IMG/VR virus record: IMGVR_UViG_3300044815_000165
Span: 25,134-89,133 of that record
DNA length: 64,000 nt
Source: a virus
Strand: one strand, 5' to 3'
Shown here: positions 9,160 to 53,549 of the stretch, one piece after another
Layout of the letters: every line of letters begins with the position of its first letter
Position numbering within the stretch: position 1 is the stretch's first letter
Translations under genes and position numbers: made by a program
Notes under the pieces: generated by a model
What the model was told of the DNA's origin: nothing
Database searches by the model: none
Seen by the model: only the letters and a program-made list of their open reading frames with translations

Positions 9160-10302
9160 ATGCACCTGCAACAGGCGCCGTCGGTCCGAACTCGCTCCAA
9201 GACGCGCGAGTCCGACCACGACCGCGAGCGCGCCATCTGGCAGGCGCTGCAGGGTGCACGCTGCTCCGGCAACGACCGCCTCCTGCCCGTCTACTTCCGT
9301 GGACGCCGCATCGCTTGGGTCGCGAGCGATCTCGAGCGCTACGTCGTCCTCCGTCACGAGTCGTGGATGGACAAGCACGTCGACCGCGTCGGTCGCCTCT
9401 TCGGGTGGACGCGGATCGATCACATCATTCGCGACTCGACACAGTTCGGCCAGGCGTGCGTGCGGATGTGGTCGAAGAACATCTACAACTCCGGGCTGCT
9501 GACACCTCGGTGGCATCACCTCCACGGCGTCGCCGGCAACCCGGGCGCGAACACGTTCGCGGGCACAGCACTGCAGTCGAAACGTCACAGCGACGCACTC
9601 GACATGGGCATCGACCACGGCGGCAACGTCTCGCCAATGGTGAAGTTCCTGCTTGGCGGTGGTGCACGCATCGGTGCTACCGGCACGTTCGCCGAGACCG
9701 CGCTGTTCCTGCTCTACGATCTCGTCGTGAGCTACGACCAGTGCGGGTTCGTCGCGGGCTCGCAGTCGATGTCGACGACCGCCGGCGTGAACGACGCGCT
9801 CCGCTACGTCGGCACGAACGATCCTGGCCTCGTCATCATGCCGATGACGACCGCCGCGAACGGCAACATCGCGTACACGTCGCTCGCGTACACGAGCGAC
9901 ACTGGAACCGCGCCCGAGGGCGCCGCCGCGGTGACGACCTCGCTACAGACCGTCTTCACGTCGGCTGCACCGACCGCGGGGGACCAGTGGGTCAGCGCGA
10001 TCGAGTACAGCGGATCGCACTCGATGCTCAGCATCCCGCTCCGTGCTGGCGACACCGGCGTGAAGCAGATCGACAGCTTCACGATGGGTACCACCGTCGC
10101 CGGTCAGATCGCATTCCTCCTAGGCGGTCCGCTCGGCTGGTTCCCGGTACACGGTGGCGACTATTACCATCCGATGGACTTCGTGAAGATCACTACCGAG
10201 GAGCCCGTGATCCTCGATGGTGCGTGCCTCACGTGGGTCATGCACAGCGTGTCCCTCAACCAGGTGTTCAGCGGTCACCTCAACTTCGCGTGGGGCTCAT
10301 GA
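9160..10302 (+). CDS. Putative virion protein, paralogue 4 of 4
   Basis: WHHLHGVAGNP, YDLVVSYDQC, PLRAGDTGVK, LDGACL. Confidence 0.75.
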   Translation: MHLQQAPSVRTRSKTRESDHDRERAIWQALQGARCSGNDRLLPVYFRGRRIAWVASDLERYVVLRHESWMDKHVDRVGRLFGWTRIDHIIRDSTQFGQACVRMWSKNIYNSGLLTPRWHHLHGVAGNPGANTFAGTALQSKRHSDALDMGIDHGGNVSPMVKFLLGGGARIGATGTFAETALFLLYDLVVSYDQCGFVAGSQSMSTTAGVNDALRYVGTNDPGLVIMPMTTAANGNIAYTSLAYTSDTGTAPEGAAAVTTSLQTVFTSAAPTAGDQWVSAIEYSGSHSMLSIPLRAGDTGVKQIDSFTMGTTVAGQIAFLLGGPLGWFPVHGGDYYHPMDFVKITTEEPVILDGACLTWVMHSVSLNQVFSGHLNFAWGS

Positions 10303-24956: not shown

Positions 24957-25107
24957 GTTGAGATGGCGGAAGTAGGTAGACGCGCCAGCCTAGACGTGAC
25001 CCGATAACGGGCGCGTCGAAGCGGGTGTCTGGTAGCCAACGGGTTGCGCTGCAGCCGCGCTCGTTGCGTTCGCATCGGACTTGCTGGTTCGAGTCCAGCT
25101 CTCAACA
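24957..25107 (+). ncRNA. Expanded tRNA-like RNA (Leu/Ser-type scaffold, 151 nt)
   Basis: Acceptor GTTGAGA/TCTCAAC+A, D-arm GGCGGAAGTAGGTAGACGC, T-arm GCTGG-TTCGAGT-CCAGC; oversized interior. Confidence 0.75.
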
Positions 25108-25116
25108 CGAGGACAC

Positions 25117-26193
25117 ATGCCGAAGAAGCAAGACAAAGACAGAGCCCACGAGATCCGCGTTATGCGATCGACGCACAGCGAGATCACACGCATCAACGCG
25201 AAGGCAGACGTGCTTCTCAAGAACGTCATCGACCTCGGCGTTGTCCGTCCTCCTCCGAAGATCGACAAGGAGAAGGAGAAGAAGCTCACCAAGCTCTTCG
25301 CGAAGCTCAAGAAGAAGTACGACGATGTCGACGTGGTGACCACGATCGCCAACGGCTCGCGGAGCGCCACCAAGATCAGCACCATCCCGTCCGGGTGGCA
25401 GGAGATGGACGACCTCATCACCGGCGAGACCGACTCCGAGGCGCGCACCATCCCGGGCACGGGGCTCGGCTGGCCGCGCGGGCGGATCATCGAGGTCTAC
25501 GGCGACGAGGGTGTCGGCAAGACGTCCCTCTCGCTGCAGATCATCGCGGCGTTCCAGAAGGCTGGCGAGGAAGTCGCGTTCGTCGACGCCGAGCACTCGC
25601 TCGACGTCCGCTACGCGAAGAAGCTCGGTGTCGACCTGACGCGGCTCAAGATCGCGCAACCGGACGACGGCGGCGAGCGCGCCCTCTCCGTGGTTGCCGA
25701 GCTGTGCGAGAGCGGGCTGTTCGGCTGCATCGTGGTCGACTCGGTGGCCGCGCTCACGCCGGCGTCCGAGCTGGAGGCCGACTTCGAGGACACCATGCAG
25801 CCGGCGCGGCAGGCCGCGCTGATGTCGCGCGCGCTGCGCAAGCTCTCCGGCATCGTCTCGAAGAGCAACACGCTGCTCGTCTTCACGAACCAGCAGCGCA
25901 TCAAGATTGGTGTCCGGTTCGGCAACCCGAAGACGACGCCGGGCGGGCAGGCGCTGAAGTTCTACGCGTCGATCCGCATCGAGCTGGTGATGATCAAGAC
26001 CGTCCGCAAGGGCGACCGTGTCGTCCTGCGCCGCACGCGCGTGCGCACCGTCAAGAACAAGGTGGCGCCGCCGTTCCGCGACGTGTTCGTCGACGTCGTC
26101 CCGAACCAGGGCTTCGCCGCGGTGTACTCGGATCCCGACTTCGGCGGGAAGAGCACCAAGAAGAAAGACGAGGACGACGATGGCGGCGAGTAA
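25117..26193 (+). CDS. recA: RecA/UvsX-like recombinase
   Basis: GWPRGRIIEVYG, GVGKT, DAEH, VVDSVAAL, TTPGGQALKFYASIR, KNKVAPPF. Confidence 0.95.
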   Translation: MPKKQDKDRAHEIRVMRSTHSEITRINAKADVLLKNVIDLGVVRPPPKIDKEKEKKLTKLFAKLKKKYDDVDVVTTIANGSRSATKISTIPSGWQEMDDLITGETDSEARTIPGTGLGWPRGRIIEVYGDEGVGKTSLSLQIIAAFQKAGEEVAFVDAEHSLDVRYAKKLGVDLTRLKIAQPDDGGERALSVVAELCESGLFGCIVVDSVAALTPASELEADFEDTMQPARQAALMSRALRKLSGIVSKSNTLLVFTNQQRIKIGVRFGNPKTTPGGQALKFYASIRIELVMIKTVRKGDRVVLRRTRVRTVKNKVAPPFRDVFVDVVPNQGFAAVYSDPDFGGKSTKKKDEDDDGGE

Positions 26194-42012: not shown

Positions 42013-43770
42013 CTAACCCTCGAACGAGAAGCTGAACGGCGATTTCTTGCTGAGCTTCTCCATCGCGAGCCACGCGCTGCCAGCGGCGTGCACGAGGTGG
42101 TCGTCACCCGAGGAGGCGATCGCCTCGATCATCTCCTTGGTGTCGTCGTCGATCTCCTTCATGAGCGCGAGCGCCCTGAAGTGCTTGTGGAGGATCTGCA
42201 TCTTGTCGAGGGCGAGGCTGGCGAGCCCGAACTCACGCTCCTTGATGGCATGGCAGATGTTCTTGATCTGCATCGTGCGGTCGACGAGGACGCGTGCGCG
42301 CGCCGGGTCGCTCCACTCGGGTTGGAAGGTGCGGCTCTTGTGCGCGCTCGGGTTGTACCACTGCGCGTAGAAGCGATCCTCGTTGCCGACGGGGCATAGC
42401 CGTCGCAGGAGGTACGAGTTGCGGTCCTTGCCGTAGCCGGCGTCCGCGATGACGAGGTCGGGCGAGTACGGGCCGAGGAACCGCTCGACGTCCTTCGCGG
42501 ACCGCAGCTCCTCCGAGCTGTCCTCGAAGATGCCGATGTTGAGCAGGTACACGAGCCCGTTGATCGAGGAGCGACCGAGCACGAACACCCAGTTGAAGTA
42601 GCCCCAGTCGATGCCGGCGGTGATCTGCGACCACTCGTCGGTGCGGCCGAGCACGAACTCATGGCCGGCGCACGCGTTCTGGAAGTCGACGTCGCTGACG
42701 AGCGCGTCGTCCATCGAGCCAGGGAGCGCCGCGACGTAGTTGAGCCACGGCTGCAGCCACTTGAAGTCGATCTTGTCCTGCATCACGCGCGTCGCGGAGA
42801 TCCACGGCGCGATGAACTGCGGGACGTGGTAGCCGCGGATGTGCTTGCGGCTCGGGAAGCGCGCGACCCACTGGCCGGAGAACACGCGGTCGAGCTTCCC
42901 GCGGCACTTCACCTTGTGGCAGAGGTACTCGTAGCTCTCCGGCGGCAGCTCCTTCGTGCCCTCTGGGAAGTCCTTCACGCGGACGATGTTCTTCTGCCAG
43001 TCGACCTCCTGGTACTCGCCGCACTTCTCGCACTTCACCATCCAGACCTGCTGGTCGGAGTCGTTGAAGGCGACGTTGATCCCGCGGCCGGGAAGCGTCG
43101 GCGTGCTGTACTCGCGGAACAGGCCGTACTTCGACGACTTCAGCGACTCGCGGAAGGCCAGCTCGACCTTGTCGCGCATGCGGTCCTTCTCGTCCAGGAA
43201 CACCGCGTCGGCGTCGACGCCCTCGCCGAGGTTGCTCTCCCACGCGGAACGCATGATGAGGAACGACTCGCCGATCTTCTTCGTGAAGACCTGGTTCGGG
43301 ATGCCGGCGAGTGCGGCCATGCGCGGCGACTCGTTGAAGGCGGTGCCGATGCGCGTGATCGAGAAGTCGGCGAGCTGCTTGTCGCGCGGGAACGTGAGGA
43401 TGAGCTTCGTGCCTGGGTGCGTGGAGAGGAAGTGGAACACCTCCGACACGGCCAGCTCCGACCACCCGATCTGACGACCCTTCTGCGAAGCCTTGTGCTT
43501 GTGGTCGTCGCGCAGCGGCTGCTTGAGGAACGGCCGGTGGTGGAGCAGCCGCGAGTACAGCTCGCGCTCGTAGTCGGACCTGATGAGCGTCTTCTGGATG
43601 AAGCCGAGCGACTCCGGCGAGAGCCTGCGCGCGTTGTCGTAGATCAGCGCCTCGCCCTTCACCCGGCGGTTCAGGGCGCACCACAGGACCGGGTCCCGCT
43701 CTGCCACAGCCTCAAGCCCTCCCAGCGCCGATGCTTCGGGGGGAGACTCGATCACGTCCTTGAGTTTCAT
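42013..43770 (-). CDS. terL: Terminase large subunit (gpA/SPO1-like type)
   Basis: KGRQIGWSE, FLDE, YSTPT, CEKC...C Zn site, GIDWG, ADAGYG, GDDH nuclease motifs. Confidence 0.9.
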   Translation of the reverse strand: MKLKDVIESPPEASALGGLEAVAERDPVLWCALNRRVKGEALIYDNARRLSPESLGFIQKTLIRSDYERELYSRLLHHRPFLKQPLRDDHKHKASQKGRQIGWSELAVSEVFHFLSTHPGTKLILTFPRDKQLADFSITRIGTAFNESPRMAALAGIPNQVFTKKIGESFLIMRSAWESNLGEGVDADAVFLDEKDRMRDKVELAFRESLKSSKYGLFREYSTPTLPGRGINVAFNDSDQQVWMVKCEKCGEYQEVDWQKNIVRVKDFPEGTKELPPESYEYLCHKVKCRGKLDRVFSGQWVARFPSRKHIRGYHVPQFIAPWISATRVMQDKIDFKWLQPWLNYVAALPGSMDDALVSDVDFQNACAGHEFVLGRTDEWSQITAGIDWGYFNWVFVLGRSSINGLVYLLNIGIFEDSSEELRSAKDVERFLGPYSPDLVIADAGYGKDRNSYLLRRLCPVGNEDRFYAQWYNPSAHKSRTFQPEWSDPARARVLVDRTMQIKNICHAIKEREFGLASLALDKMQILHKHFRALALMKEIDDDTKEMIEAIASSGDDHLVHAAGSAWLAMEKLSKKSPFSFSFEG

Positions 43771-47090: not shown

Positions 47091-47477
47091 TCACGCACCA
47101 CCGCGGTCGGGCTTCAGGTTCCGCCAGTCGGCCTTCAGGCGGATCTGGGTGAGCGGATCGACGCCCTTGTTCTCGGCGGTGCAGCCCTCGATCGCGCACT
47201 CGTTCCCGTACGGGTACTCGCTGCACATCATGGGGCGCGTCTCGTAGATGCGGCAGTCGCCGGTCTCCGTGTCGTGGTGGCGGCACGTGTAGAGGAACGA
47301 CTTCTCGCCATCGCCATACGTCGACGTGCCGAGCGGGATCAGCATGTCGGCGAGCACGGCAGCCTCGCCGGGACGTCCGAGCTTCATGCCGGTCGTCCGG
47401 CTCACACCCTCCTTCAGCTCGTCGACGCTGTACGGGAGAGGGAATCGCTTGCAGCAGTGACCAGTGCAGCGGCTCAC
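47091..47477 (-). CDS. YkgJ-like CxxCC cysteine-cluster protein
   Basis: CTGHCC...C..H....C.IYETRP..C..YP. Confidence 0.75.
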   Translation of the reverse strand: MSRCTGHCCKRFPLPYSVDELKEGVSRTTGMKLGRPGEAAVLADMLIPLGTSTYGDGEKSFLYTCRHHDTETGDCRIYETRPMMCSEYPYGNECAIEGCTAENKGVDPLTQIRLKADWRNLKPDRGGA

Positions 47478-48830
47478 AGGATGGTCACCTGGTCGCTTGG
47501 CACGACGAAGATACCTGCGCGTGGGTTCCAATACCCAGCCTTGGGCCAGTCGATGAGGTGGTGCGTCGCCTCGTCGGTGGCGGGTCGGATGAGGCACTTG
47601 TCGATCGCGGCGGACGCGACGACCACGCACGCGCCGGCGATCTCGAACACGTCGGCGACGAACATCGCGTCGTGTCCGCAGTAGCGGACCATAGCGCCGC
47701 ACTTCGACTTCGGAGCGCGCTCGCGCTTCTCGCACGTGTGCAGACCTTTGAGTTGTGGGTCAATGCACTGCGCGCAGCCGCTCTTCTTCTTTTCCTTCAT
47801 CGCTTCTTTCCTCTCGCGAGCTTCTCTCGCGGCACGAAGTGGTTGATGTGCGACGGACGCAGGCACATCACGCAGGGTTTAGAGTAGCCGCGCTCGTGTC
47901 CGTCGTTGCTGTTGGCGCAGTCCGCGCAGCTGCCGACCACCTCGACCTCGTCCGGCACGATCCCGGCGAAGGCGAATAGCGCGTCCAGCTCATTCGCGGT
48001 GAATTGTCCGAGCGACGTGGAGACGAAGCACCACGCACCGTCGCTGAGCGACGTGTACCCGCCCTGCTCCTTGGAGCGCATGTCGATGAGCACGCGCTGG
48101 ATGACCTTGCGCGCCAGCTCGTCGACGAGTTGCGTCGTCTTCGACGTGTTGATCTCAGGCGCGGGTCGCGGTGTGCGCTTCGGCGCCGCGATCGGAACGA
48201 AGTTGTCGGTCTTCATGTTCTCTTCTTCTTTCGTTCCTCGTATTCGGCGACGCGGTCGGCGCGCTGAGGAATTTTCTTGGGTTGCTTGGTGGTGGCGAGC
48301 TTGAAGTCGAAGAACCGACCGCACGCCGTGCACTTGTGCTCCATCGCACCGTCGCAGAGAAGATCTGGACACGGGGTCATCTGGTCTTGGCGTCCCACTC
48401 TTCGGCGAGGAGCGTCGCGACCTCGTCCGGCACGCACGCCCCGATCTCCATCGGCGTGAGCAGCTTCCAGTACCAGGACAACACGAGGTGCCGGTACTCG
48501 GCGCGTGCCGCGGTGAGGCGCTGCAGTGCTGCCACGCGGCGAGAGTCAGACGCACCCATCGGCATCTGGCGCATGTCGTCTTCAAAGCGCGCCAACGCGG
48601 TGTGCCAGCCACGGAGCGCGTTGGTCGTGTGGATCGCCCACTCGTTCATCGGCGATGCCTCATGGCGCGCGCGAGCACGATGCAGTCGTGCGCGTGCTCT
48701 ACCAGCTGGTCGGGTGTCAGGAAGATGGATGCCTTCCTGTTATCCACGCGCTCGCGGACGCGGATGCGTGCGTACAACCCGTTGTTCTCGTCAACGAGTT
48801 CGATCTCGTCGCCTAGGTTGATGGTCCCTT

Positions 48831-49817
48831 TCACGACGTGTACTCCGCGACGCTCTCGTCGTCTTCGCTCGGCGTCGTCATCGGGTTGTTCTGGAGATGC
48901 GTGACCGCCGCGGGCATCGCCATCCGACCTTGTGGCGTGCGGCGGATGAGGCCGGTCTCGAGCAGCCACGGCTCGATGATCCCTTCGATCACGCCGCGCT
49001 CGAGGCCGAGCTGCGCGGCGATGGCCATCACGCCGTACGGCGCGCCGAGCCGCTCGCAGAGGATCCCGAGATAGGCGCGGTCGTTCACGGTGAGTCCGAG
49101 CGCATCGACGCCGAGCGCATCGAACGTGTGGTCGGCGACCTCACACGTGATCACGCGCTCGCCGGCGGACTGCATGAAGTCGCGGCACGCGCGCACGAGG
49201 CGGTTCGCGATGCGCGGCGTGCCACGCGCTCGGTTCGCGATCATGACCGCGATCTGCGCCGGGTCGCTGCACCCGATGCCGAGCTTCTCCATCGTCCGCT
49301 TCGCGATGATCGACAGGTCGAGCACGCTGTAGTGCTTCAGGTCGAACGTGTACGCGAAGCGGTCGCGCAGCGGGCCGGTGATGAGGTGCGCGCGGGTCGT
49401 CGCGCCGATGAGCGTGAACGGCTGCAGCGGCAGGCGGATGGTCTTCTTGCCCGCGCTGAGGTCGACGTGGCCGTCCTCCGCAGCGCTGTACAACAATTCT
49501 TGAAGAGCAGGCTTGAGTCCGTGCAGCTCGTCCAGGAACAGCACGTCGTTCTTCCCGAGTGACGTGAGCATCCCGGTCAGCTCGCCCTTGTGTTCGATCG
49601 CCTGACAGATGGCGGCGTGGAGCTTCGACTTCATCTCCGTGGCTACGATTTGTGCGAGGCTCGTCTTGCCACATCCAGGCAAACCAGTCAGCAGAACGTG
49701 TCCGCATGCACGATCGTTGTGAGAGGCGGCAACCACGACTCGACGAAGCACGGAGACGGTTTCTCGTTGACCGACAAAGCTGTCGAAACTGCTCGGTCGG
49801 ATGTCGTTGTCCTTCAT
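48831..49817 (-). CDS. ruvB: Holliday junction branch migration ATPase RuvB
   Basis: RPSSFDSFVGQ, GLPGCGKT, FLDELH, GATTR, PLRDRF, RGTPRIANRL, RTPQGR. Confidence 0.93.
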   Translation of the reverse strand: MKDNDIRPSSFDSFVGQRETVSVLRRVVVAASHNDRACGHVLLTGLPGCGKTSLAQIVATEMKSKLHAAICQAIEHKGELTGMLTSLGKNDVLFLDELHGLKPALQELLYSAAEDGHVDLSAGKKTIRLPLQPFTLIGATTRAHLITGPLRDRFAYTFDLKHYSVLDLSIIAKRTMEKLGIGCSDPAQIAVMIANRARGTPRIANRLVRACRDFMQSAGERVITCEVADHTFDALGVDALGLTVNDRAYLGILCERLGAPYGVMAIAAQLGLERGVIEGIIEPWLLETGLIRRTPQGRMAMPAAVTHLQNNPMTTPSEDDESVAEYTS

Positions 49818-50230
49818 GTCTTGTCTTTCTTGCGTCGATGAAAAGCTGCACGATGGCAAGCTCTACAGAATCGACGACCGTTGGAGATTGTGGTGTTTTC
49901 TTCGGTGTACGCGTGACCTTGCGGACACTTCGTCTTGCGAGCGTTCCGAGCTGACAGCCCGTCGCCGCGCAGGGTGTTCTCGCGATGCGTGACCAGCTCG
50001 ACGTGGTTCGGGTTGCAGCACCAGCGATTCCTGCAGAGGTGATCAGGAACCATTCCGTTGGGGATTGGTTTGATGAGGTGTTCGTAGAATGCGCGGTGGA
50101 TATACAGCTGCGCGTAGTTCACGGTGATGCGCACGTACCCATCTTCTTTGGGGTGGATCGGAGATCTCCAGCATGACCATGGACCGACGATGCGAATCGC
50201 CGCCAAGTGATCTCCGATAGTCTTCTTCAC
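49814..50230 (-). CDS. HNH homing endonuclease
   Basis: DGY..HRAFYE..PDHLCRNRWCCNPNH; KCPQGH..CRAC. Confidence 0.88.
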   Translation of the reverse strand: MKKTIGDHLAAIRIVGPWSCWRSPIHPKEDGYVRITVNYAQLYIHRAFYEHLIKPIPNGMVPDHLCRNRWCCNPNHVELVTHRENTLRGDGLSARNARKTKCPQGHAYTEENTTISNGRRFCRACHRAAFHRRKKDKT

Positions 50231-50779
50231 GCGTCATCCGTTGGTTTGGGGATCTTCGCGAGCCAGCGCTCGCCGTCGTCGCGACCCGTCGTCTTCTTCA
50301 TCTTGCCGTTGTCCTCGAGCGTCACCCACCCGAGCTTCTCGAGCGAGCGAGCAACGGTCACCTGCGGTCCCTTGAGGAACATCCCGCCGCGCGGGAAGTC
50401 GCGGATCTCGTTCAGCAGCGCCAGCTGCTTGTCCGTGAGCAGGTTCTCCTTGGGCTCGCCGACGATGACGACGTCGCGGCGCGCCTGCGCCTCGTTCAGC
50501 GCGTGGTACGAGTTGCCACCGTCGATGCTGACCCAGACGTAGTTGCCCTGCGGACGCACCTCGGCGACGGCAGCCGCACCCTTGTAGATGCACGGACGCT
50601 TGCGGAAACCGAATCTACTGTGGAGGCTCATGCGTTCTCCTGCCATCTGATGAAGTGGCTGCGCAGCTCGTCGTAGTGCTCGTGCTCGAAGTCGTAGACG
50701 TCCTTCTGCCACGGTGCGTGCGACGGGTTGAGCCACGCGCGTCGCAGCAGTTCGGCGTAGCGCTTGAACAACTCTTCGC

Positions 50780-51262
50780 TCACGTGTCACCTGCTACGGC
50801 GCCGGTGAGCGCCGCGGTGACCCACGTCTCGAGGTCGATGCGCGAGTCGGTCGAACACGCGTCCGTCCACCGGATCGCTTCCTTCCGGCTGTAGCCGGCA
50901 CCCGTGAGTGCCGCGATGACGTCGTCGCGCCACGGGTTCGCAGAGATGGGCTCGCGCTCGCCACGCGTCGTGTCGACGATCGGGGTGAGCTGAGGCTTGG
51001 TCATCACCTTGCGAAATGGACGCACGATCTTGGTGCCGGGTTCGGACGGCGGGCGACGTTCACGCGGTGGCGCCAGGCGAGCAGCGGGCAGCTCCCTGCG
51101 ACGTTCGTCAGCCAGCTTCGCGGCGTCGAGCTTCGCGAACGCGCGACGCTGGCGCCAGTCCTGAACGCGCAGCACGATCTTGTGCGTCTGGTAGCCGACG
51201 TAGATCCCGACCACGCCGCCGGCAGCTGCGCCGACGCCGAGGACCTCCCACGGCGGGCTCAC
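50780..51262 (-). CDS. Predicted membrane-anchored protein with RuvA C-terminal (domain III)-like domain
   Basis: GTGA overlap start; TM VLGVGAAAGGVVGIYVGY followed by a basic patch; C-terminal DDVIAALTGAGYSRKEA...LETWVTAAL. Confidence 0.7.
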   Translation of the reverse strand: MSPPWEVLGVGAAAGGVVGIYVGYQTHKIVLRVQDWRQRRAFAKLDAAKLADERRRELPAARLAPPRERRPPSEPGTKIVRPFRKVMTKPQLTPIVDTTRGEREPISANPWRDDVIAALTGAGYSRKEAIRWTDACSTDSRIDLETWVTAALTGAVAGDT

Positions 51263-51986
51263 GCTGGCCTCCGAGTCGATTCCTCGAACTTGTCGACGGC
51301 GTTCTGCATGGCCTCTCCGATGACGCGTCCGATGCCGATCCACGTCTGCTGCTCGCCGCGATAGTTCACATCGCCTCCCGCGATCGTGACGCGCCAAGCA
51401 CGTGCGCTGGATACGAACACGACTTGCATGTCGAGTCGGTTGTCGTTGAGGTAGCGCTGCAGTTCCAGCACCGACGTCGCGCCGTTGAACTTCACGCACC
51501 CTCCTTGAGGAGCTGCGCCTTGAACTCGGGCGACACCTTCTTCGCGTAGCTGTCCGCCGCCTCTTGCAGCTCGGTGAGCGCCTCGACGAGTGGGTTGCCG
51601 TCGTCCGAGCCGTCGCTGTCCTTGCTTGCCGCGTCCGACCACCGGATCGCCGCGACCTCGAGTCGGATCATCGCCTTCTGGCGATCCATCAGGCTCACGC
51701 GAGCACCTCGAGTTCGTTGACGTCGAACCAGTGGGACTGCACGTCGCTGCCCCACTTCCAGGTCTTGCCCGGCGACTTGTCGAACTTCACGAGGCACGAC
51801 GCGAGCGCCTTCTTGTGCCCGGTCGCGCGCTCGTGCGTGAGCACCTCGGTGACGACGCCCGTCTGGCCTTGGAGGACCTTGAGCGCGTCCGCGTTCCACG
51901 CGCTCACGTCCTTCACGTCGACGCGCACGCGGTCTCCGACCTTCTTCTCGATCATGGTTCAGGTTCCTTTCAGGTTGGTGGGAATG

Positions 51987-52015
51987 AGTATACCATTAGC
52001 GTTGACGTTGTCAAC
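51987..52015 (-). promoter_or_regulatory. Promoter with palindromic operator
   Basis: GTTGACGTTGTCAAC 52001-52015; TTGACA-16bp-TATACT. Confidence 0.75.
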
Positions 52016-52904
52016 ACCAATAGTCCACTACTTGCCGAGGTTGCGAGGCTTCGGATCGGTGAGTTCGCCGCGCTCGACCTGCGCGATGACGGCGTCGCAG
52101 TCGGCCATGCGGTGGCCTCTCCAACGTCCGCCGGCGAACGACCAGCCACACCGCGTGCACGCGTGCTTGTAGTAGCTGTTCCAGCGACGCCCGCTCGCGT
52201 ACGTCTGGGTGAACTTGTTCTCGACGAACGTCAGGCCGTAGCGATTCGTCGCGATGACATCAGTTTGCAGTGCCGTCGTCATGCTTCGCGACCTCGCCAG
52301 CGGTCACGTCGCTCGGCGGCGTGTCGTGCTGCGACACGATGTTGTCGATCGTGATGAACGCCTCGGCGAGCATCTTGCCGAGCTTCGCGATCTGGTGGCG
52401 GCGCGCATCCACCGTCTCGCCCGGCGCGAGCGGTGACGCGTTCAGGTCGGCAAGCTTGACGATGCGCTCGCTCATCTCGCGTGCCTGCTTGTGAGCTGCC
52501 CGGAACAGCTCGCCCTCGGTGACGACGACGATCATTTTCCACCTCTCTCCGCGCGAAGCTTCTTGATGAGCTGGCGTTCGTCTTCGGTGAGCGACGCCGC
52601 GAACTCGATCTTCTCGCGGCGCGCCCTGTCGAAGACGTCGAGCGCGTTGCCGAGCTTGTTGTTGATCCCTTCGACGAGCTTCTGCTCGCCGTTCGAGTAA
52701 CGTGTAGTTCTCGCCCTCGTCGCATGCATAAAGCACATTCTTGAGCAGCTGCATCTCGTCCTCCCCGAAGAGCAGGAAGTGTTCTGAGTCTCTCTTCAGG
52801 CGCTCGATCTCGACATCCTTCGCCTTGATTGTCTCGAGCAACTCTGCCACGTCGAATCCCATTGCCATGTTCTCTCCTCGGTTCAGGGTTGGTTCAAGCA
52901 TCCG

Positions 52905-52956
52905 GTGCGTTGCCTGGCAAGCGAGCCAGCTGGAACGGCGGACCGTTCAACGCTTC
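52905..52956 (-). repeat. 52-bp structured repeat, copy 1
   Basis: Identical to 59841-59892; folds as a three-way junction. Confidence 0.9.
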
Positions 52957-53549
52957 GCAATGATCATCGCGAGGGCGAGCGACCCTGCGAGGGAGCGGCG
53001 AGGTCGAGGTCGCGCACGCTCGATCTTGAGACGCACCGCTCTCCACCTCACCCAGTAATCGAGGATCGCACCGTACGCGAACTGCGCATCCGTCCTCACA
53101 GCGTGTCGACCTTCGCACGAGCGCGGTGCATCTCCGCGGCCTTCTGCGCGAGCTTGCGGATGCCGCGCGCGTCGCCCTTCCACTTACACGTACAGCTCGG
53201 GACGAACTTGCCTTCCTCGTTCTCGTCGACCTTGGTCACGTGCTGGTTGCTCATCGCTTCGTGAGGTCCTCGTCGTGACCATCGGGGTGCGTGAGCGTGA
53301 TGCGGATGCGGCGAGGATGCGTGCCCCACACGTTCGCCAGGATCGCTTCCTCGAGCTTCTCGCGCGTGTCGGCGCGCAGCACGAACTCCTCGCAGCCTCC
53401 GTACAGCAACACGGCGGTGACGCGCATGAACTCGCCGTGGCTGAACGTCGCGCGGAGCATCCATGGCATCCTCACCTTGTCCTCGTTCGCGCGATTGTCG
53501 ATCTTGTACGTCGGCGCGTAGATGACCTCGAGCCCTTCGATGGCTGGCA

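Follow-up and report, generated by a model that had tools for sequence, protein, structure and literature searches.

A phage RuvB linked to a predicted membrane-anchored RuvA domain III protein: a candidate replacement for RuvA

In RuvAB, a textbook machine of recombination, the Holliday junction is recognised by RuvA, whose domain III both activates and braces the RuvB motor. What does a phage RuvB work with when the gene that accompanies it encodes a likeness of domain III and no other part of RuvA? This question is raised by the window analysed here, a stretch of 64,000 nucleotides (bases 25134-89133 of the 89,133-bp IMG/VR record IMGVR_UViG_3300044815_000165, from an uncultured soil phage), which carries ruvB and, upstream of it, a gene for a protein of 160 amino acids (aa). 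A sequence-only reading had proposed that the two form a membrane-tethered DNA motor, and our computational analysis partly supports this overall interpretation. The answer that we prefer, and regard as reasonably probable from sequence comparison and structure modelling, is that the 160-aa protein would take the place of RuvA, its domain III being carried on a membrane anchor and docking on and activating the RuvB of the phage itself at the membrane's inner face. Our confidence in any particular biological role is much lower. The two genes and their parts are as follows, with model confidence given as the predicted local distance difference test (pLDDT) and GC3 denoting G+C content at third codon positions.

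48831-49817, minus strand: RuvB, an AAA+ translocase of double-stranded DNA (dsDNA), 328 aa, of a viral short-hairpin clade (Pfam, PDB alignment, model)
49428-49469, minus strand: RuvB's presensor-1 beta-hairpin, residues 117-130, the docking element for RuvA domain III, with a tip that lacks 4 residues relative to cellular RuvB
50780-51262, minus strand: predicted membrane-anchored RuvA domain III protein (TM-D3), 160 aa (open reading frame (ORF), GC3 of 0.83, GTGA start overlap, GGAGG)
51182-51250, minus strand: Gly-zipper hydrophobic helix of the same protein, residues 5-27, predicted single-pass anchor (hydropathy; modelled helix, pLDDT 87-95)
50933-51181, minus strand: basic juxtamembrane helix followed by a disordered Pro/Arg-rich tether, residues 28-110 (helix to residue 57, coil pLDDT 58-69)
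50783-50932, minus strand: RuvA domain III-like helical bundle, residues 111-160 (Pfam, profile and fold searches)

The gene at 48831-49817 encodes an intact RuvB, as had been claimed, with three Pfam domains above their cut-offs (RuvB_N, E value 1e-46, 159.1 bits; AAA_lid_4, 3e-18, 65.7 bits; RuvB_C, 2e-15, 57.2 bits) and all ATPase motifs present. Its best PDB matches were RuvB chains, aligned end to end with an E value of 4e-71, and the Walker A motif GCGKT, the Walker B residues DE, the GATTR motif, the RDRF arginine and the sensor 2 motif RGTPR were aligned and conserved relative to solved RuvBs. The clade shows no variation at K51/T52, D96/E97, T140/T141, R151/R153 and R202; of the three C-terminal hairpin arginines, R293 and R298 are retained; and the protein was modelled with a pLDDT of 88.5 and a predicted template modelling score of 0.79. 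The presensor-1 hairpin shows a gap of 4 residues in the alignment with solved RuvBs, which confirms the earlier observation that the RuvA-binding hairpin is shortened; it was modelled as a tight beta-hairpin with strands 117-122 and 125-130 joined by a 2-residue turn (pLDDT ~91-92). By every criterion except hairpin length, the predicted phage protein is a RuvB. About 75 relatives at 54-79% identity were found on contigs of up to ~120 kb, followed by cellular RuvBs at no more than 48%, and the GenBank phage matches were ~40% identical and mostly unannotated fragments or host-like DNA.

Two further observations concern the viral RuvBs. An acidic C-terminal tail that terminates in E-x-T-S (window 48831-48890, minus strand) is conserved in the clade, with E325 invariant in the clade alignment; in the model the last five residues have a pLDDT below 50, and the block means over the last 18 residues are 63 and 48. 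This acidic tail may be a partner-binding element. In a distant relative (locus L035, 8620-10641, plus strand), ruvB contains an intein in the P-loop region, with a Hint match (3.8e-15) and a LAGLIDADG homing endonuclease, and a shortened copy of the intein-bearing ruvB is also present in locus L036.

The 160-aa ORF is a real gene as judged by GC3 (0.83 in its frame), by its start context, in which GTG, the start codon, shares bases with the stop of the upstream ORF (GTGA) and GGAGG lies 5 nt upstream, and by ~46 representative homologues across metagenomes, which gave an alignment of 47 sequences. An AlphaFold2 model built on these homologues showed a helix at residues 5-57, a low-confidence coil at 58-111 and a compact helical bundle at 112-158. 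The sequence-only reading had matched the C-terminus to the pattern of RuvA domain III. This claim stands at the level of the family and not for the 160-aa protein alone, which matched Pfam RuvA_C (PF07499) over residues 111-152 with an E value of 0.0055 and 17.6 bits, below the 24-bit cut-off, and reached 19.7 bits, again below the cut-off, in a six-frame search. RuvA_C was matched by 40 of the 47 family members at E ≤ 0.1, with a best value of 1.1e-9. When the profile of the 47 sequences was compared with PDB sequences, the top ten matches were RuvA chains aligned over domain III; a shallower profile of 5 sequences had no match in the PDB.

The modelled bundle, with a pLDDT above 93, gave RuvA domain III as the top 18 Foldseek matches (probability up to 1.0; template modelling score 0.81 and root-mean-square deviation (rmsd) 1.7 Å to the isolated domain of a RuvAB cryo-EM structure). 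With VIA-align, 50 residues were superposed on residues 148-203 of Mycobacterium leprae RuvA (7oa5_B) with a Z score of 9.0 and an rmsd of 1.4 Å, and four mycobacterial RuvA entries scored at least 8.1, whereas UBA domains scored no more than 6.9. Together, the profile and fold comparisons provide strong support for homology of the predicted C-terminal bundle to RuvA domain III, which we accept at family level. In Escherichia coli RuvA, L167 and L170 are both required for RuvB activation, and L167A abolishes it (PMC2628435). The equivalent of L167 in the HMMER alignment, L119, is nearly invariant in the family, which also has conserved residues of its own, D134, C136, E140, R141 and W147.

The N-terminal segment of the 160-aa protein reaches 1.40 in its best 19-residue Kyte-Doolittle (KD) window and has three consecutive GxxxG motifs, followed by net positive charge. 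All full-length members of the family have a hydrophobic segment of ~19-22 residues within the first ~30, again followed by net positive charge, so that the earlier proposal of an N-terminal hydrophobic anchor followed by a basic patch is supported by hydropathy across the family. KD values are 1.4-2.1 in close relatives and 2.2-2.6 in a distant subfamily, whose predicted segment is unmistakably membrane-like. N-terminal family matches, all weak, were to the single-pass membrane families MTLN and LapA_dom. The C-terminus is placed in the cytoplasm because of the positive-inside rule and because no positively charged N-region of signal-peptide type is found in the family, and our prediction is that the N-terminal helix is a single-pass membrane anchor with N-out/C-in topology. 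The linker of the 160-aa protein has a net charge of +11; across the family, the segment between anchor and domain III spans 46-132 residues with ~10% proline and is net positive in 46 of 47 members (median +7). Otherwise variable, the linker keeps a (V/I)-I-P-(L/V) motif in all family members (window ~50960-51000, minus strand; residues ~88-100), in which P94 is nearly invariant, and this motif may serve as a second contact site.

The 160-aa family and ruvB were found to be linked in both directions of search. Eight viral loci were fetched via RuvB, and a reverse search with a sub-alignment of the anchor family yielded 5 viral and 24 metagenome loci. In seven of the eight viral loci, ruvB has the anchor gene upstream of it on the same strand; conversely, all five viral loci found through the anchor family carry ruvB downstream of the anchor gene, and 22 of the 24 metagenome loci have it there on the same strand. 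Of the other two metagenome loci, one is a contig of 1.7 kb and the second a contig whose sequence departs from that of its twin shortly before ruvB. Co-occurrence of the two genes, which the sequence-only reading had suggested surveying, is thus near-universal. The distance between them ranges from a 4-bp overlap to ~2.6 kb, the genes between them differ from locus to locus, and the distant loci have essentially nothing in common with this phage apart from the pair. A scan of viral and metagenome contigs with a 5-sequence alignment found nothing. The diverging contig and its twin (L026 and L027) are 99.97% identical through the anchor gene and part from position 9448, ~150 bp before the ruvB start, which may reflect a rearrangement or a misassembly. 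In one distant locus (L037, 40-2827, minus strand), ORFs judged by eye to be phosphomannomutase-like and mannose-1-phosphate guanylyltransferase-like lie on the opposite strand ~4.5 kb from the pair; these may be auxiliary genes or mark a prophage boundary.

Outside such contigs the anchor family was scarcely found. The protein had no match among GenBank phage proteins, and 185,579 reference prokaryote genomes yielded one truncated match. The nearest ESM Atlas cluster was a weak match (score 0.83, a lead only) with 55 members, all viral, 11% of them with RuvA_C. The anchor family so far consists of unnamed hypothetical proteins, and literature searches on phage RuvB or a membrane-anchored RuvA domain found no description. 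The truncated match (L044, 3-131, plus strand) corresponds to the C-terminal part of an anchor-family protein and begins a contig of an Alphaproteobacteria metagenome-assembled genome, with no ruvB within 8 kb; it is followed by a ~340-aa open frame judged by eye to be a solute-binding protein gene. This match may mark the edge of a prophage, come from a chimeric contig or give a weak hint of the host.

The presensor-1 hairpin and helix alpha3 of RuvB form the surface that binds RuvA domain III (PMC9477746). In an alignment of 72 RuvBs, in which the cellular sample comprises the nearest database matches only, the hairpin region was either 23 residues (short) or 27 residues (full) long. The 4-residue deletion at the hairpin tip was found in all 22 distinct anchor-linked RuvBs, in 5 further clade representatives and in one other sequence, P0125, whereas 44 of 45 cell-like RuvBs kept the full hairpin. 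In a quick IQ-TREE maximum-likelihood tree, the short-hairpin RuvBs fall on one side of a branch with a support of 100 in the Shimodaira-Hasegawa-like approximate likelihood ratio test (SH-aLRT). Because the anchor protein co-varies with the hairpin-shortened RuvB, the phage's own RuvB is its likely partner. P0125, from a 10.6-kb JGI contig, is among the cell-like RuvBs at no more than 48% identity, yet it has the hairpin deletion and branches beside the viral set; it is probably another viral RuvB.

Pfam searches gave no match to RuvA_N (domain I) or HHH_5 (domain II) in the 160-aa protein or in the 89-kb record, and none to RuvA_N in five related partial records. The earlier statement that the junction-binding domains are absent and that there is no full ruvA therefore holds for this record, which is 76% complete by CheckV estimate.

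The surroundings of the pair contain the following features.

50628-50783, minus strand: 51-aa ORF, also conserved in L025, the closest relative, immediately ahead of ruvB
50227-50640, minus strand: ~137-aa ORF with no family match, unlike the genes at that position in other loci
49814-50230, minus strand: HNH homing-type endonuclease (HNH_3, 1e-11; phrog_826, 1e-37), whose stop overlaps the ruvB start (ATGA)
51987-52014, minus strand: sigma-70-like promoter match, TTGACA-16 nt-TATACT with a TG extension (11/12 consensus positions), ahead of a run of genes with the anchor gene and ruvB among them
25081-26193, plus strand: RecA
42013-43707, minus strand: SPO1-like terminase large subunit, 37% identical to that of Bacillus phage SPO1
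55646-57193, minus strand: AAA ATPase, 515 aa, with its nearest counterparts among the AAA ATPases of Mycobacterium phages (41% identity)
47091-47477, minus strand: small protein with a CxxCxxCC zinc/iron-chelating domain (Pfam, 3e-6), in the strand block of ruvB and ~1.4 kb downstream of it

As had been described, the 160-aa ORF (50780-51262) lies ~1 kb upstream of ruvB (48831-49817) on the same, minus strand, and the gap holds the two small ORFs and the HNH endonuclease. The endonuclease gene has a GC3 of 0.65, compared with 0.83-0.87 in its neighbours, and is absent from L025. Because the 51-aa ORF abuts ruvB in L025, the HNH gene has a low GC3 and its stop overlaps the start of ruvB, it and the 137-aa ORF look like an insertion, and the endonuclease is probably a recent mobile arrival between the two genes of the pair. 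The intervening genes were considered as a third conserved partner or as parts of a split RuvA and rejected, since they vary by locus and match no family. The promoter site is unique of its kind within 48000-53000, and no terminator-like sites were found on the minus strand from the promoter to ruvB; this arrangement is consistent with co-transcription of the anchor gene and ruvB from one predicted promoter.

The window has a G+C content of ~64%. At the DNA level, a search against GenBank phages found nothing resembling the region; among public runs, a single one, a soil metagenome, matched it strongly, and no RNA run was listed for it. The plus-strand half comprises replication and recombination genes, encoding a superfamily 2 (SF2) helicase, DnaB, a Toprim primase, a family A polymerase (PolA), RecA and Mre11/Rad50-like proteins. 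The minus-strand block, from ~64000 down to 39364, contains the AAA ATPase, the anchor gene and ruvB, a topoisomerase-like protein and the terminase large subunit. Both genes of the pair had been assigned to a presumed early block, far from a resolvase and RecA. This timing is not established, because the terminase large subunit lies in the same strand block, and no resolvase was recovered, the Pfam search giving no match to RuvC or RusA. The gene content is mosaic, with an SPO1-like terminase beside a mycobacteriophage-type AAA ATPase. The latter was examined as a partner of domain III and rejected, as it is confined to a close group of phages and is a classical AAA protein.

How might such a pair work? 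Within RuvAB, domain III is wedged between subunits of RuvB, where it acts as an exchange factor for nucleotides and activates the ATPase; being attached to the RuvA core, it also gives the DNA-pulling lever motion its fulcrum (PMC9477746). In the phage, the helix would cross the cytoplasmic membrane and leave domain III on the cytoplasmic side, and one or two copies of domain III would dock on the alpha3/presensor-1 surface of RuvB subunits and drive nucleotide exchange and ATP hydrolysis, as they do in RuvAB (PMC9477746). The fixed point from which the hexamer pulls dsDNA would be the membrane instead of a RuvA tetramer on a Holliday junction, so that the RuvB ring would hold duplex DNA, or reel it, at the membrane's inner face. 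Candidate roles for such a ring are the anchoring of replicating or recombining phage DNA at the membrane, a second step of genome entry in which the remainder is pulled in after early expression, and the handling of concatemers before packaging. The broader proposal that the pair represents a new type of membrane-anchored dsDNA pump, in which the membrane replaces the RuvA-junction core as the fulcrum of RuvB and duplex DNA is moved relative to the envelope, either for genome uptake after the first genes or for spooling replicating DNA, is one that we offer only tentatively and hold to be doubtful.

Several points weigh against an anchored replacement for RuvA. The hydrophobic segment of the 160-aa protein is itself Gly-rich and borderline (KD 1.40), and its domain III by itself stays under the Pfam cut-off for RuvA_C. 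The equivalent of E. coli L170 is Ala or Ser throughout the family, so the interface with RuvB has been remodelled and could be weakened. One of the eight viral loci found through RuvB (L008) has no anchor gene in the 3.5 kb available upstream of ruvB, and the 62-kb record to which it belongs gave no match. With a record that is 76% complete, RuvA could lie elsewhere. Finally, an ordinary recombination role for RuvB is plausible, because the phage has RecA and Mre11/Rad50-like genes.

The last of these points, together with the borderline segment, leads to a different account, in which the N-terminal helix is an oligomerisation element that bundles several copies of domain III, much as a RuvA tetramer does, and the pair carries out ordinary branch migration or fork reversal in recombination-dependent replication, with junction recognition coming from RuvB itself, from the basic linker or from another phage protein. 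Glycine-zipper motifs pack soluble or interfacial helices too, the segment of this protein is only marginally hydrophobic, its strongly basic linker could bind DNA, and DnaB, a primase and PolA are encoded by the phage in addition to RecA and the Mre11/Rad50-like proteins. However, the distant subfamily has a classic ~20-residue span with KD 2.2-2.6 and flanking positive charge, which would hardly be soluble; the weak N-terminal family matches are to single-pass membrane proteins; and no third gene is conserved with the pair. We consider this account unlikely.

Two other explanations retain the membrane anchor and alter what it is for. The sequence-only reading had raised the sequestration of host RuvB. 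As a decoy, the protein might trap host RuvB at the membrane, or compete with the host's RuvA, and so disable host recombination or repair. An isolated domain III is indeed a RuvB-binding module (PMC9477746), and small early membrane proteins are common as host-takeover factors, but the gene almost never occurs without a phage ruvB immediately downstream, and in the linked RuvB it is precisely the docking hairpin that shows a clade-specific change. Sequestration of host RuvB is less likely because this co-variation points to the phage's own RuvB, and the family-wide alteration of the L170-equivalent contact argues for a private pair rather than a mimic of host RuvA. Among the alternatives, the decoy fits the strict linkage and the co-variation least well, and we judge it very improbable. 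Alternatively, the anchor could restrain the motor, parking the phage RuvB at the membrane, off DNA, until a later stage or turning it on the incoming DNA of competing phages (superinfection exclusion). That domain III is an activator in RuvAB speaks against restraint, as does the lack of any known defence or exclusion signature in the neighbourhood (the PADLOC library was not searched), but tethering can sequester as well as activate, a flexible tether and membrane location fit exclusion proteins, and co-transcription from one promoter is plausible; we see little likelihood in it.

Compared with the textbook machine, the anchor family lacks the recognition part and carries the bracing part on a predicted membrane anchor, and the docking hairpin of the motor has changed in step. 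The recurrence of the pair across many viral contigs that share little else suggests a recombination motor re-wired to the membrane. Were docking and membrane location both true, the lever mechanism of RuvB would be portable to another fixed point; phages would possess a DNA-handling device beyond terminases and FtsK-like pumps; and the pair would offer a natural minimal activator, a domain of ~50 residues, together with an orthogonal RuvB/domain III pair for studying control of the AAA+ cycle. In addition, a probable partner has been assigned to a family of viral 'hypothetical proteins'.

Comparison with known systems places the pair closest to bacterial RuvAB. UBA domains, which belong to the same Pfam clan and fold class as RuvA_C, are likewise compact three-helix bundles (fold-search Z 4-6.9), but RuvA domain III outranks every UBA by both profile and fold, and the gene context is ruvB; to our knowledge, bacteria and phages have no ubiquitin system. 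FtsK and SpoIIIE are hexameric dsDNA translocases that an N-terminal anchor and a long linker keep at the membrane. If our reading is right, the phage pair would likewise be a membrane-held dsDNA pump, a functional analogy only: the motor here is the AAA+ protein RuvB, for which no FtsK_SpoIIIE was present among the best 25 of 34 Pfam matches, all of AAA+/P-loop families, and anchor and motor are separate polypeptides that would be joined non-covalently. The passage of PMC4974454 that cites Serna-Rico 2003 describes p16.7 of phi29 as integral to the membrane, where it organises the replication of phage DNA. On that description, the likeness is one of architecture and proposed role, again by analogy, both proteins being small, with an N-terminal anchor and a cytoplasmic C-terminal domain that links DNA machinery to the membrane; p16.7 binds DNA and terminal protein directly, whereas here the cytoplasmic domain is a predicted docking module for an ATP-driven dsDNA motor, and no homology is claimed. 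With bacterial RuvA-RuvB (PDB 7pbl-7pbt, 7x7p/7x7q and 1ixs; PMC9477746), the phage pair shares a RuvB with all three domains and the catalytic motifs, a partner gene upstream of ruvB as ruvA is, and a partner that ends, after a flexible linker, in a domain III matching that of RuvA in fold and sequence family. It differs in that the partner has neither domain I (OB) nor domain II (HhH), and hence no Holliday-junction binding or tetramer core, and has a hydrophobic, membrane-type helix and a long basic tether in their place; and the docking surfaces themselves differ, with a RuvB hairpin that is 4 residues shorter, Ala or Ser at the L170-equivalent contact and conserved residues that are the family's own.

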